Part shown: positions 57,984-61,665 of the stretch, one piece after another
Numbering within the stretch: position 1 is the stretch's first letter
Layout of the letters: each line of letters begins with the position of its first letter
Source of the DNA: an uncultured Actinomycetota bacterium
Lineage (GTDB): Bacteria; Actinomycetota; Actinomycetes; Mycobacteriales; SCTD01
Direction of reading: 5' to 3'
Assembly (NCBI GenBank): GCA_963784705.1
Contig: CAWASC010000008.1
Coordinates: forward strand, 292,334 to 356,333
DNA: 64,000 bases
Made by a program: the position numbers and the translations under genes
The notes under the pieces: generated by a model
What the model was told of the DNA's origin: nothing
The model's database searches: none
Seen by the model: only the letters and a program-made list of their open reading frames with translations

Positions 57984-60458
57984 CTATCCAGGGACGATGT
58001 TGACGAGCTTCGGCGCACGGACGATGACGGTCCGCGGCGCGACGCCGCCGAGCAGGTCGACGACCTTCTCCGACGCCAGGGCCAGGGCCCGCAGGTCGTC
58101 CTCGCTGATGCCCGGCGGGACCTCGAGCTTGTCGCGCACCTTGCCCGCGACCTGCACGACGCAGGTCACCAGGTCATCGACCAGCAGCGCCGGGTCGGCG
58201 GTCGGCCAGGTCGACGCGTGCACCGAGTCGCCGCTGCGGACGTCGTGACCCAGCCGGGACCAGACCTCCTCCGCGGTGTACGGCGCGTAGCAGCTCAGCA
58301 TGACCGCCAGCGCTTCCACCCCCTGGCGCAGCGACGCCGGTCCTGAGGCACCTGCGTCACAGGCCTTGCGCAGCACGTTGGTCAGCTCCATGAACCGCGC
58401 GATCGACACGTTCAGCCGGTGGTTCTCGGTCAGTCGGGTGACCTCGTCGACCGTCTTGGCCACGGCCCGGTCGACCGCCAGGTCTCGACCGTCGCCCGTC
58501 AGCGCGCCCACGTCGGTGGCCAGACGCGCGACACGAGCCAGCCACTTCACCGATCCCGCAGGAGACACGTCCGCCCAGTCGATGTCGTCCTCCGGCGGTC
58601 CGGCGAAGACGATCGAGAGGCGGACCGCGTCCACCCCGTACGCCGTCAGCTCGCCGCCCAGGTCGACGCCGTTGCCCAGGGACTTGCTCATGGCCTTGCC
58701 CTGGTTGATCACCTGACCCTGGTTCAGCAGCGCGCTGAACGGCTCGACGAAGTCGACCATGCCCATGTCGTGCAGCACCTTGGTGAAGAACCGGCTGTAC
58801 AGCAGGTGCAGGATCGCGTGCTCGACGCCGCCGACGTACTGCGCGACGGGCATCCACTCACGCACCGCCTCCACGTCGAACGGGCCCTCGGTGTAGTCCG
58901 GCGAGCAGTAGCGCAGGAAGTACCACGAGCTGTCGACGAAGGTGTCCATGGTGTCGGTGTCGCGCTGGGCCGGACCGTGGCAGGACGGGCACAGGGTCGT
59001 GACCCAGTCGGTGTTCGACGCCAGCGGAGACTGCCCCTTCGGCTGCAGCTCGGAGCCCTTCATGTCCGACGGCAGCCGCACCGGCAGCTGGTCGTCGGGA
59101 ACGGCGACCTCACCGCAGTCGGGGCAGTGCACGATCGGGATGGGCGCGCCCCAGAACCGCTGGCGGGACAGCAGCCAGTCGCGCAGCCGGTAGTTGACCG
59201 CCATCTTCCCGGTGGCGCGCTCGGCCAGCACCTCGATCGCGCGGTCGATGGCCTCGACCTTGCCCAGTCCGTCCAGGGACCCGCTGTTGACCAGGACGCC
59301 GTCACCGGCCGTCGCGACACCGGTCTCGTTCGGGTCGGCCTCACCGGTGTCGACGACGACGCGCACCGGCAGGTCGAAGGCGCGCGCGAAGTCCAGGTCG
59401 CGCTGGTCGTGCGCGGGCACCGCCATGATGGCGCCGGTGCCGTAGTCGGACAGGACGTAGTCGGCAGCGAAGACCGGCAGCTCCTCACCGTTCAGCGGGT
59501 TGGTCGCCGTGACCCCCAGCGAGACCCCCGTCTTCGGTCGGTCGGTCGCCAGTCGCTCGATGTCGGTCAGTCGCTTCACCTGCTCGCGGTAGGCCTCCAG
59601 CGCCTCGCGCTGCTCCGGCGCGCACAGCTCCTCCGCCAACGCAGCGTCGGCCGCCACGACGAAGAACGTCGCGCCGTACAGCGTGTCGGGACGTGTCGTG
59701 AAGACCGTGACCTGCCGCTCGCCGATGGCGAAGTCGACGTGCGCGCCGACCGACCGCCCGATCCAGTTCTTCTGCATGAGCAGGACACGCTCGGGCCAGT
59801 GGCCCTCCAGCTGCGCCATGTCGTCCAGCAGCCGGTCGGCGTAGTCGGTGATCTTGAAGTACCACTGCGTCAGCTCGCGCTTGGTGACCTCGGCGTTGCA
59901 GCGCTCGCAGCGGCCGCCGACGACCTGCTCGTTGGCCAGGACCGTCTGGTCCTGCGGGCACCAGTTGACCGCGCTGTTCTTGCGGTAGGCCAGCCCCCGC
60001 TCACGAAAGCGCAGGAACAACCACTGCGTCCACCGGTAGTACTCCGGGTCGGAGGTGTGCACCCGCCGGTTCCAGTCGAAGCTGACGGCGTACCTCTTGA
60101 AGGACTCCGCCTGGGTGTCGATGTTGGCGTAGGTCCACTCCGCCGGGTGCGCGTCCCGCTTGATCGCGGCGTTCTCCGCAGGCAGGCCGAACGAGTCCCA
60201 GCCGATGGGGTGCAGGACGTCGTACCCGCGGCGCATCCAGTAGCGCGCGACGACGTCGCCGATCCCGAACGCCTCGGCATGACCCATGTGCAGGTCGCCG
60301 CTGGGGTAGGGGAACATGTCCAGGACGTACTTCTTCGGCGCCCCGGCGCGCACCCCGACCCGGTTGAGGTCGAGGTCCTGCCACACCGGCAGCCAGGTGT
60401 CCTGCACCTCGTGCGGGTCCAGGTGTCCGGGTCCGCGCTCGTCCTCGACGCTCGTCAT
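57984..60458 (-). CDS. leuS: Leucine--tRNA ligase
   Basis: ORF 57984..60620 trimmed to ATG 60458 (GGAGGAG 5 nt upstream; [22 protein letters not shown]). HIGH-type motif [11 protein letters not shown] and KMSKS ([10 protein letters not shown]). Confidence 0.95.
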
Positions 60459-60513
60459 GGGTCTCCTCCGAGGGGTGCGGGTGGCGCGGGCAACAAGGGC
60501 GGGTGCGGGCAAC

Positions 60514-60539
60514 AAAAAAGCCCCCGTGGTCACGAGGGC
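60514..60539 (-). terminator. Intrinsic-terminator-like hairpin plus U6 tract inside the leuS 5' leader
   Basis: Minus strand reads GCCCUCGUGACCACGGGGGC followed by UUUUUUG: a 7-8 bp GC stem including one G-U pair, with a 4-6 nt loop. It lies ~55 nt upstream of the leuS ATG. Confidence 0.65.
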
Positions 60540-60540
60540 G

Positions 60541-60606
60541 CCGCGCTGGACCGAGGTTCGGTCAGCGCGGCTCGGGAAGGAGCGTGCTGTGCATGACCTC
60601 ACCCTA
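60541..60606 (-). promoter_or_regulatory. Candidate leuS leader: TAGGGT -10-like box, leaderless 10-codon uORF ([10 protein letters not shown]), 13-bp stem-loop
   Basis: Minus strand: TAGGGT (60606-60601), 6 nt, then ATG CAC AGC ACG CTC CTT CCC GAG CCG CGC TGA (60594-60562). The stop lies inside the stem CCGCGCTGACCGA / TCGGTCCAGCGCGG (60570-60541). Confidence 0.4.
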
Positions 60607-60629
60607 TCGCGCGCGTCCACCCACTTAAG

Positions 60630-61665
60630 GTGATGGGCGTGACCGCACCGACGCAGGAGCCCGTGGCGGCCCCTGTCGTCGAGTCACCGTGGCGGATGGC
60701 GGGCCTGCAGGCCAGGCAGCGCCGCCGGTGGTTGCTGCTGTGGACCGCCGTGCTCTTCGTCGTGATCAGCGCGCTCACCGGGTTCCCCACCGGCCGCGAG
60801 ACGCTGACGTTCTGGATGCTGGCCTTCCTGCTCGCCGCCTGCGCCGGTGACTGGGGACTGTGGCGCGCGGTCGTCGTGCGCGACTGGCTGCCTCTGCTCG
60901 CGGTGCTGTGGTCCTACGACCTGCTGCGCGGCCTGGCCAATGACGTCGGCGGGCACCTGTGGAACCTGCCGACGTACAGCGCCGGCGACGGCCGCACCGC
61001 ACGCGCGAACATGACGGAGATGATCGACCTCGACAAGGCGGTCTTCGGCGGTCACGTCCCCACCGTCTGGTTGCAGGACAGGCTCTTCACGCCCGGTCAG
61101 GTGCACTGGTGGGACGGCATCGCGGTTCCCGTGTACATGTCGCACTTCCTGGTGTCACTCGCGCTGGGCATCGTGCTGTGGTGCGTCGCCTACCCGCTGT
61201 TCCGCCGCTACCTCGCCGCGCTGGTCACGCTGACCGTCATCACGCTGGTCGACCTACCTGCTCGTACCCGGCCGCTCCCCCGTGGATGGCCGCGCTGAAC
61301 GGCAAGCTCGGCGCAGGCACCGAGATCCACCGCGTCGTGCAGGAGTCGATCGTCACGCTCGGTGGGAGCACGGCCGGGTCAGCGGTCGAGCGGGGCGCGG
61401 CCTACTCCAACCCGGTGGCCGCGATGCCGTCGCTGCATGCGGCGATCCCGATGATGCTCCTCCTGCTGTTCTTCGGCCGGGTCGGCCCAGTCCTCAAGGT
61501 CGTGCTCGTCGCCTACGCCCTCACGATGGCCTGCACGCTCGTGTACGGCGGCGAGCACTACGTCACCGACGTGCGCTCGGCTGGGTGTACGCCGCGGTCT
61601 CCGTGGTGGGTGTGAATATCTACCTGGCACGACGCGACCGCGTGGCACCGGCCGGACCTGCCTGA
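60630..61665 (+). pseudogene. PAP2_3-type (inositolphosphotransferase/IPC-synthase-like) membrane protein, two frame breaks
   Basis: N-terminal TM part is in ORF 60630..61298. The middle with AMPSLHAAIPMMLLLL and GGEHYVTDV is in ORF 60959..61615. The tail LGWVYAAVSVVGVNIYLARR is in ORF 61282..61665. Both steps are -1 in phase. Confidence 0.65.

Follow-up and report, generated by a model that had tools for sequence, protein, structure and literature searches.

Why should an intrinsic terminator stand between the promoter region and the start codon of leuS, the gene for leucyl-tRNA synthetase (LeuRS)? This question is raised by a stretch of 64,000 nucleotides (nt) from the genome assembly of an uncultured Actinomycetota bacterium (contig CAWASC010000008.1, positions 292,334 to 356,333), called "the window" in the following. 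In this window, leuS on the minus strand is preceded by a small upstream open reading frame (uORF) with two adjacent leucine codons, a hairpin (hairpin 1), and a terminator. A first reading, made from the sequence alone and named here the sequence-only reading, had proposed that these parts may constitute a transcription attenuator. The answer favored here, with a probability of about 0.7, is that they form a leucine-sensing leader peptide attenuator, which controls leuS by premature termination of transcription and is the counterpart of the leuL2 leader of Streptomyces lividans. Direct support comes from the parts themselves, their co-conservation, the covariation of the base pairs, the conservation of the reading frame, the bias toward a rare codon, and the rigid spacing.

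Every feature listed by the sequence-only reading was found at its place when the sequence was checked (Table 1). The −10 box is separated from the start codon of the uORF by 6 nt (GAGGTC), and because the box ends at this distance from the start codon, the transcript of the window is predicted to be leaderless. A scan for promoters of the Escherichia coli type found none, as is expected at a G+C content of 72%. Of the two regulatory Leu codons, CTT is separated by exactly 5 nt from G60571, where the pairing of hairpin 1 begins. The same reading had supposed that this codon should be rare; it makes up 2.1% of the Leu codons when 25 long ORFs of the window are counted, and leuS, which has 75 Leu codons, does not use it at all. 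Hairpin 1 contains the stop codon of the uORF (TGA, 60564-60562) within its 5' arm, as had been described, but its stem has 14 bp with one bulge instead of 13 bp. Its stability is −25.5 kcal/mol. The terminator adjoins hairpin 1 without any spacer, its stem of 8 bp is closed by the loop GACC, its 5' arm reads GCCCTCGT as DNA, and its stability is −12.9 kcal/mol. It is the sole terminator-like site between 59800 and 61400, and this count alone is not significant, with one site found and 0.5 expected in 1.6 kb. Rfam 15 yielded nothing at the gathering threshold over the whole window. A permissive scan of positions 60300 to 60800 with E values up to 10 gave no T-box, no Leu_leader, and no Leu-Phe leader match, the best matches being at chance level only (anti-hemB, E of 0.37).

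Table 1. Features of the leuS leader and its surroundings in the window
Feature	Position	Strand	Basis or remark
−10 promoter box TAGGGT	60601..60606	−	in GATAGGGT; family consensus G-N-TANNNT
Leader uORF, 10 codons + TGA	60562..60594	−	ATG CAC AGC ACG CTC CTT CCC GAG CCG CGC TGA
Regulatory Leu codons, CTC (60582-60580) and CTT (60579-60577)	60577..60582	−	codon rarity, fixed spacing
Hairpin 1, 14 bp, one bulged C	60540..60571	−	fold; GCCGCGCUGACCGA / UCGGUC-CAGCGCGGC
Intrinsic terminator	60514..60539	−	stem-loop GCCCUCGU-GACC-ACGGGGGC (60539-60520) + U6 (60519-60514)
Read-through 5' untranslated region (5' UTR) of leuS	60459..60513	−	C-rich; without TA dinucleotide; sequence
11-nt direct repeat TTGTTGCCCGC, first copy	60515-60505	−	
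11-nt direct repeat TTGTTGCCCGC, second copy	60496-60486	−	
Shine-Dalgarno sequence GGAGGAG	60469-60463	−	in the leuS 5' UTR
leuS, leucyl-tRNA synthetase, 824 aa	57984..60458	−	Pfam tRNA-synt_1_2 (2.6e-58), tRNA-synt_1, Anticodon_1
Divergent membrane protein gene	start 60630/60634	+	neighbor of leuS
ORF matching PAP2_3	60959-61615	+	other frame, overlaps the membrane-protein ORF

To decide whether such an arrangement is more than a product of chance, its occurrence in other bacteria has to be considered. Two sets of loci that encode a LeuS relative were sampled, 80 from genomes, chosen by relationship to the LeuS N terminus, and 80 from metagenomes, fetched independently. When the genome set was scanned in a simple way, about 30 loci showed a terminator upstream of leuS that has a T run, a C-rich arm, and a G-rich arm, mostly CCCCTC...GAGGGG. 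The complete arrangement, consisting of a TANNNT box, 6 to 7 nt, an ATG or GTG, a short ORF that contains Leu codons, a hairpin of the form GCCGCG...CGCGGC, and the terminator, was present in 34 genome loci, which were aligned together with the window by MAFFT (alignment A1). The covariance model R1 derived from A1 matched the leader in 38 of the 80 genome loci and in 30 of the 80 metagenome loci, and all 68 copies shared the strand of leuS and preceded the LeuS match by no more than about 320 nt. A second model, R2, was built from an alignment of the metagenome copies only (A3), the window being left out. When the 64 kb of the window were searched with R2, positions 60509-60608 of the minus strand were matched over the full length of the model with 58.5 bits and an E value of 4.5e-14. 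This was the sole significant match, the next-best E value being above 2. Because the leader is conserved and a model built without the window nevertheless assigns a score this high to it, the leader is more than a chance constellation. The window copy itself shows the position, the TANNNT geometry, the ORF of 8 to 16 codons with adjacent Leu codons, and the hairpin followed by a C-rich/G-rich terminator with a T run that characterize the Leu leaders of leuS.

The comparative and covariation analysis, which the sequence-only reading had proposed as a check, revealed compensatory changes in both helices. In A3, 98.1% of the cells were paired and changes on both sides were seen in 9 of the 16 pairs. 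None of 500 shuffles reached the observed level of pairing, and only 41 to 57% of the cells were paired when the partners were slid by 1 to 3 columns. Separated by helix, pairing was 98.5% in helix 1, with both-side changes in 4 of 9 modeled pairs, and 97.5% in helix 2, with both-side changes in 5 of 7 pairs. RNAalifold, applied to A1, which had not been fitted to a structure, returned the same two helices with 9 of 16 compensatory pairs. The cores of the stems, GCCGC/GCGGC and CCCCUC/GAGGGG, show almost no variation, a degree of conservation that pairing by itself does not require. As for the attenuator proposal as a whole, uORF, Leu codons, hairpin, and terminator turned out to be co-conserved upstream of leuS in 68 independent loci.

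The uORF is conserved as strictly as the structure. A TANNNT box is located 6 to 7 nt before the start codon in all 68 distinct sequences, so that the geometry of a leaderless transcript, recognized before in the window, is kept throughout the family. The start codon is ATG in 43 and GTG in 25 of these sequences, and in 68/68 it shares its frame with the Leu codon located 5 nt ahead of hairpin 1. Start codon and last Leu codon are 15, 18, 21, 24, or 33 nt apart, with insertions and deletions occurring in threes, and the Leu codons vary synonymously and stay Leu codons (CTG CTC CTT, CTC CTT CTT, or CTT CTG CTT). Since frame and start codon are kept in every sequence and the Leu codons vary synonymously, the uORF is under selection as a reading frame. 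Three Leu codons are found in 48 of 70 leaders and two in 16, the window being among the latter, and runs of three Leu occur in 47 of the 70. The 187 Leu codons of the family leaders include 88 CTT, mostly at the last position, 49 CTG, and 46 CTC. CTT makes up 47% of them versus the 2.1% in the window genes, which means that this codon is strongly enriched in the leaders, though it is rare in these G+C-rich genomes. Two arrangements of the stop codon dominate. In 37 sequences it is TAG, and the pairing of hairpin 1 begins with its final G; in 24, among them the window, it is TGA and lies 7 nt inside the 5' arm. The leaders nearest to that of the window encode MQELLLPEPR (L146, with the same GCCCTCGTGA terminator arm) and MRSFVRLLLAGPR (L081), each followed by the stop codon; the window has ACG where both have their first Leu codon.

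Equally rigid are the distances between the parts. In 66 of 67 sequences, a spacer of exactly 5 nt lies between the last Leu codon and hairpin 1; in the exception, L095, a fourth Leu codon has been inserted and the third one is still at 5 nt, which leads to 67/67 if this codon is counted. The linker from hairpin 1 to the terminator measures 0 to 2 nt in 67/67: it is 1 nt long in 62 sequences and 2 nt long in 4, and in the window it is absent (0 nt). The loop of hairpin 1 varies between 3 and 41 nt, and the median stabilities in the family are −21.6 kcal/mol for hairpin 1 and −14.6 kcal/mol for the terminator.

leuS is the gene that this leader would regulate. Its product contains the editing, catalytic, and anticodon-binding domains of LeuRS as judged by Pfam, and its true start is the ATG at 60458, not the in-frame GTG at 60620. 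The frame of leuS is open on the minus strand across the entire leader up to this GTG (57984-60620, 878 aa), and an automatic gene caller could stretch leuS over the attenuator by choosing it. Searched by exact sequence, neither the 824-aa LeuS nor DegV was on record; for LeuS, such an extended annotation may be the reason. As had been stated before, the last T of the terminator lies 55 nt upstream of the ATG and the neighboring gene is divergent, so the terminator cannot serve an upstream gene on the minus strand. No TA dinucleotide occurs in the 55 nt between T run and ATG, which precludes a TANNNT box in this segment. In some relatives, the terminator is only about 35 nt away from the start of leuS, which also argues for a dependence on read-through. 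Judged from these sequences, expression of leuS very probably depends on read-through of the terminator.

The sequence-only reading had considered that the direct repeat downstream of the terminator might instead mark the true leuS promoter. This candidate was rejected, since the 55 nt contain no TA and the second copy is not conserved, being missing in the closest relatives of the leader, L081 and L146. The first copy is common to the window and L081 (TTTTTGTTGCCCGCC). The repeat resembles a tandem duplication of about 19 nt within the read-through 5' UTR.

The leader was found in Streptosporangiales (Thermoactinospora, Nonomuraea, Streptosporangium, and Spirillospora), Micrococcaceae (Arthrobacter, Pseudarthrobacter, and Zhihengliuella), Propionibacteriales (Nocardioides, Kribbella, and Microlunatus), Frankiaceae, and Pseudonocardiales. 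In the sampled loci of Nanopelagicales, Microbacteriaceae, Bifidobacterium, and Nocardia, no copy was found. The leader is widespread but often lost.

That actinobacterial leuS is not described as attenuator controlled, as the sequence-only reading assumed, does not agree with the literature. "Classical candidate attenuators" were predicted upstream of leuS in Streptomyces coelicolor and Streptomyces avermitilis and likened to the pheST attenuator of E. coli (Seliverstov et al., BMC Microbiol 2005, PMC1262725), and start-site mapping in S. lividans placed the leaderless leuL2, encoding MRAVRLLLSEPR, upstream of leuS (Droste et al., Front Microbiol 2021, PMC8079986). No further paper than these two was obtained when the literature was searched for leuS leaders and attenuators. 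The leader of the window adds an example to a regulator already described in Streptomyces and is not a discovery. It shares with leuL2 the location directly upstream of leuS, a leaderless transcript, predicted for the window, a peptide of 8 to 12 residues with a Leu run, and the hairpin and U stretch that follow. The first eight residues of the leuL2 peptide are common to MRAVRLLLT of two family members (L028 and L112), and its C-terminal EPR is common to the window and L061, with MRVTLLLTEPR as an example from the family. On the other hand, the window has two Leu codons versus three in leuL2, ACG replacing the first, and its host is not a Streptomyces; the match between them rests on the published peptide and the architecture. 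A further difference is that the 2005 paper reports an antiterminator and none was found in the family here.

This leads to the points that weigh against a leucine-sensing attenuator. No antiterminator exists in the family members examined, and the literature searched contains no experiment on leucine dependence for any member. The copy in the window has only two Leu codons. The two loci L001 and L002, which encode the closest LeuS relatives among the genomes (78 to 79% identity), are without the leader, so the leader is dispensable. In the ilvB leader of S. coelicolor, moreover, a change of the putative regulatory codons had no effect (PMC1262725), and because of this result, actinobacterial leader peptides need not be textbook attenuators.

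Most of these points would also fit a constitutive short transcription unit or a leaky insulator, which does not sense leucine and where read-through is fixed or set by NusA/NusG or the growth rate. The missing antiterminator, the only two Leu codons of the window, the ilvB precedent of codon substitution without effect, and members with one or no adjacent Leu (L009, L073, and L010) can all be read this way. Such an element would not explain why a Leu codon is kept at the same distance from hairpin 1 in all sequences, why runs of three Leu prevail, or why the rare CUU is so strongly enriched. It would also not explain why the element is specific to leuS; the only other confident match was a second leader with the peptide motif LVLLL (L008:6100-6198). 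A unit without leucine sensing is improbable for these reasons.

A second possibility, slightly less probable again, is a classical attenuator of the trp type. Here, the ribosome on the Leu codons would mask the 5' arm of hairpin 1, and the freed 3' arm would pair with the 5' arm of the terminator to yield an antiterminator. The 2005 study speaks for it by stating antiterminator and terminator hairpins in the leuS leaders of S. coelicolor and S. avermitilis (PMC1262725). Two related loci with long hairpin 1 loops containing G-rich segments, L008 and L083, can form alternative folds of −16 to −17 kcal/mol under a masking ribosome that involve the 5' arm of the terminator. The antiterminator was searched for by four approaches, namely, partition-function folding with ribosome masking, a census of stems, folding of the nascent RNA at the stage preceding synthesis of the 3' arm, and a comparison of the interaction gain with shuffles. 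With the A site placed at each codon, the probability of the terminator remained about 1.0 in every masked state in 31 of 35 sequences, and the census of all possible stems of at least 4 bp across the alignment gave no conserved competitor. The interaction between the 3' arm of hairpin 1 and the 5' arm of the terminator had a median of −1.95 kcal/mol and was weaker than in the shuffles (median z of +0.74), none of 64 cases being significant; the gain in the window was −4.1 versus a mean of −4.9 kcal/mol in its shuffles. This agrees with the sequences of the two arms, which are 0 to 2 nt apart: when the G-rich 3' arm (GCGCGGC) is set against CCCCUC, only 4 of 6 antiparallel positions match, with C-U and C-C mismatches. 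Finally, the fixed spacer of 5 nt keeps a ribosome whose A site holds the last Leu codon from reaching into hairpin 1. The caveat of the sequence-only reading that no obvious antiterminator pairing could be found holds for the whole family, and the label "classical" of 2005 is not borne out for the members examined.

The sole alternative pairing that recurred was that of the Leu tract CUCCUU with the 3' arm of the terminator, GAGGGG, in 24 to 28 of 35 sequences (columns 46-51 versus 135-140 of A1). It was rejected as a switch, since the ribosome covers the tract in both states and the terminator wins in the free RNA with a probability of 1.0. The Leu tract resembles the 5' arm of the terminator (CCCCUC) and the anti-Shine-Dalgarno sequence.

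Two other explanations are very improbable. That the terminated RNA of about 80 nt or the 10-residue peptide acts in trans, beside or instead of control in cis, would suit the expected abundance of the short transcript, the near invariance of the stem cores, and the precedent reported for rnTrpL and peTrpL in Sinorhizobium (bioRxiv 10.1101/606483), but the peptide is variable outside the Leu run and comes in two C-terminal forms (ending in LLLT or LLLxxPR), the element is always linked to leuS, and no target was found, though none was sought. That the abutting hairpins bind a protein or tRNA, as in an autoregulation by LeuRS like that of E. coli ThrRS or in a T-box-like contact to tRNA-Leu, with the ORF being incidental, could account for the invariant stem cores and the rigid juxtaposition of the stems and has a parallel in the T-box of actinobacterial ileS (PMC1262725), but the Rfam scan at E values up to 10 gave neither a T-box nor another family above chance level, and such a site would not require a frame and start codon kept in 68/68 or Leu codons that vary synonymously. 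The kept frame and the Leu-specific ORF with its rare-codon bias speak against both explanations, as they do against the unit without leucine sensing.

The leucine-sensing attenuator is the reading retained, and its operation can be outlined on this basis. Because an antiterminator is absent, the direction of regulation and the physical switch have to be deduced. Transcription from the TAGGGT promoter would start with the A of the uORF ATG or a base adjoining it, a 70S ribosome would translate the leader of 10 codons straight from the 5' end, and RNA polymerase would meet the intrinsic terminator about 80 nt downstream, ahead of leuS. If leuS has no promoter of its own past the terminator, synthesis of LeuRS would need read-through. 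The fraction of read-through should be set by the speed of the ribosome over the Leu codons, above all over the rare CUU, and this speed would report the supply of charged tRNA-Leu. Slow passage would then result in more read-through and more LeuRS, a homeostatic feedback as in pheST of E. coli.

In pheST, a synthetase gene is preceded by pheM, a short leader rich in codons for the cognate amino acid, and by an intrinsic terminator, and starvation is expected to raise the synthetase level. The pheM ORF is led by a Shine-Dalgarno sequence, contains five Phe codons, and is followed by the overlapping hairpins 1:2, 2:3, and 3:4. The leuS leader has the synthetase gene, the cognate-rich peptide, and the intrinsic terminator in common with pheST; it differs by being leaderless, by having two to three Leu codons, and by the lack of an overlapping antiterminator. 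The enterobacterial leader of the leu operon (Rfam Leu_leader, RF00512) senses charged tRNA-Leu by consecutive Leu codons, including the rare CUA, and controls leuABCD by alternative pairing. Consecutive Leu codons with a rare one, CUA there and CUU here, precede the terminator in both cases. In contrast to the leuS leader, Leu_leader controls biosynthesis genes instead of a synthetase gene and uses classical pairing, and the window had no match to it in Rfam.

Because no antiterminator exists and the spacings are rigid, the switch may work by position instead of alternative pairing. A tentative model, preferred here among the possible switches but with the odds against it, assumes that the ribosome together with the folded hairpin 1 blocks closure of the terminator without any antiterminator RNA. 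With CUU in the A site and the spacer of 5 nt, hairpin 1 would begin at about +12 from the P site. The ribosome, as Takyar et al. reportedly found in 2005, unwinds mRNA to about +11 from the first P-site nucleotide. Hairpin 1 would consequently stay folded against the mRNA entry of the ribosome during the wait and would be unwound once the ribosome leaves this position. In the trp arrangement the situation is reversed, the first hairpin being disrupted by the stalled ribosome. The state with hairpin 1 folded and the ribosome abutting it would be the sole one to give read-through on starvation in the leuS leader. In this state, the 5' arm of the terminator would start 0 to 2 nt from the base of a stem that rests on the ribosome, so that hardly any free RNA would remain on the 5' side of the terminator stem, and a ribosome waiting within about 6 nt of this stem could hinder its closure in the exit channel of the polymerase. 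Hairpin 1 shares no bases with the terminator and would act as a spacer controlled by the ribosome. A ribosome that has arrived at the stop codon would open hairpin 1, which in the window would provide at least 22 nt of single strand and allow the terminator to fold. Hairpin 1 may additionally pause the polymerase until the ribosome arrives, as a leaderless ORF of 30 nt would need.

Precedents exist for a terminator that is controlled by the proximity of a ribosome. In coupling of the pyrBI type, a nearby ribosome represses the terminator. The positional model resembles pyrBI and the tR2 case in that the ribosome would block closure of the terminator hairpin without antiterminator RNA. For tR2 in E. 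coli, termination decreased from about 90% to under 10% when the distance between the stop codon and the terminator was shortened from 28 to 5 bp, and 10 to 15 nt of free RNA were argued to be necessary for closure of the hairpin (Li et al., PMC4824070). The difference is that the ORF in these systems ends a few nt from the terminator in linear distance, whereas the closeness in the leuS leader would be reached only by the folded hairpin 1 looping out 32 to 65 nt.

Some observations concern the leader in other loci. Just after the T run, a motif TG(Y)CC(G)G is conserved (columns 147-152 of A1, for instance in L005, L020, L038, and L074), as in …TTTTTTCATGTCCGGA and …TTTTGTGTGTCCGG…, and in L020 this motif forms a perfect extra hairpin, GTGTCCGG-CG-CCGGACAC. 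A second small ORF starting at the conserved NTG after the T run, with GAGGGG as a Shine-Dalgarno sequence, was rejected, since its frame is no more open (median of 79 versus 68 nt). The second leader in L008 is a paralogous copy on the plus strand about 1.1 kb downstream of the L008 leuS, scoring 35.8 bits. It shows a TATCCT box, 6 nt, a GTG, the peptide MRLVLLLR, and a hairpin of GCCGCGCCGAC...GTCGGCGTGGC, and no CCCCTC terminator was found before the end of the locus. Another gene related to leucine may be under the control of this copy, which may also connect the leuS leader with the "LEU element" leaders of leuA.

The closest LeuS matches, 77 to 79% identical, belong to uncultured Actinomycetales and Marmoricola-like genomes, and no LeuS relative above 79% identity was detected in the genome and metagenome scans. 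Upstream of leuS in L002, a Marmoricola metagenome-assembled genome, the region L002:500-560 contains a TAGCAT box and a hairpin, GAGCCCCCGT-CCGC-ACGGGGGCTC, like the terminator stem of the window, and is without T run, leader ORF, and hairpin 1. This hairpin may be a decayed remnant of the leader. L001 and L002 have retained the synteny of leuS with the PAP2-family gene. In the window, this membrane protein seems to be split, with the N-terminal transmembrane part in 60630-61298 of the plus strand and the PAP2_3 domain in the overlapping ORF given in Table 1, which suggests a frameshift, a pseudogene, or a sequencing error.

For the window, these data provide a correct annotation of the 5' region of leuS, with a leaderless ORF of 10 codons, a premature terminator, and a start at 60458. 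A leader hitherto reported only from Streptomyces is present in roughly 40% of the sampled leuS loci of Actinomycetota; the family is absent from Rfam, and a usable covariance model now exists for it. What is of further interest is how the leader peptide tunes the terminator without an antiterminator, and with it the invariant spacings of 5 nt and 0 to 2 nt. If the positional model is true, the leader of leuS would be an attenuator that works without antiterminator RNA.

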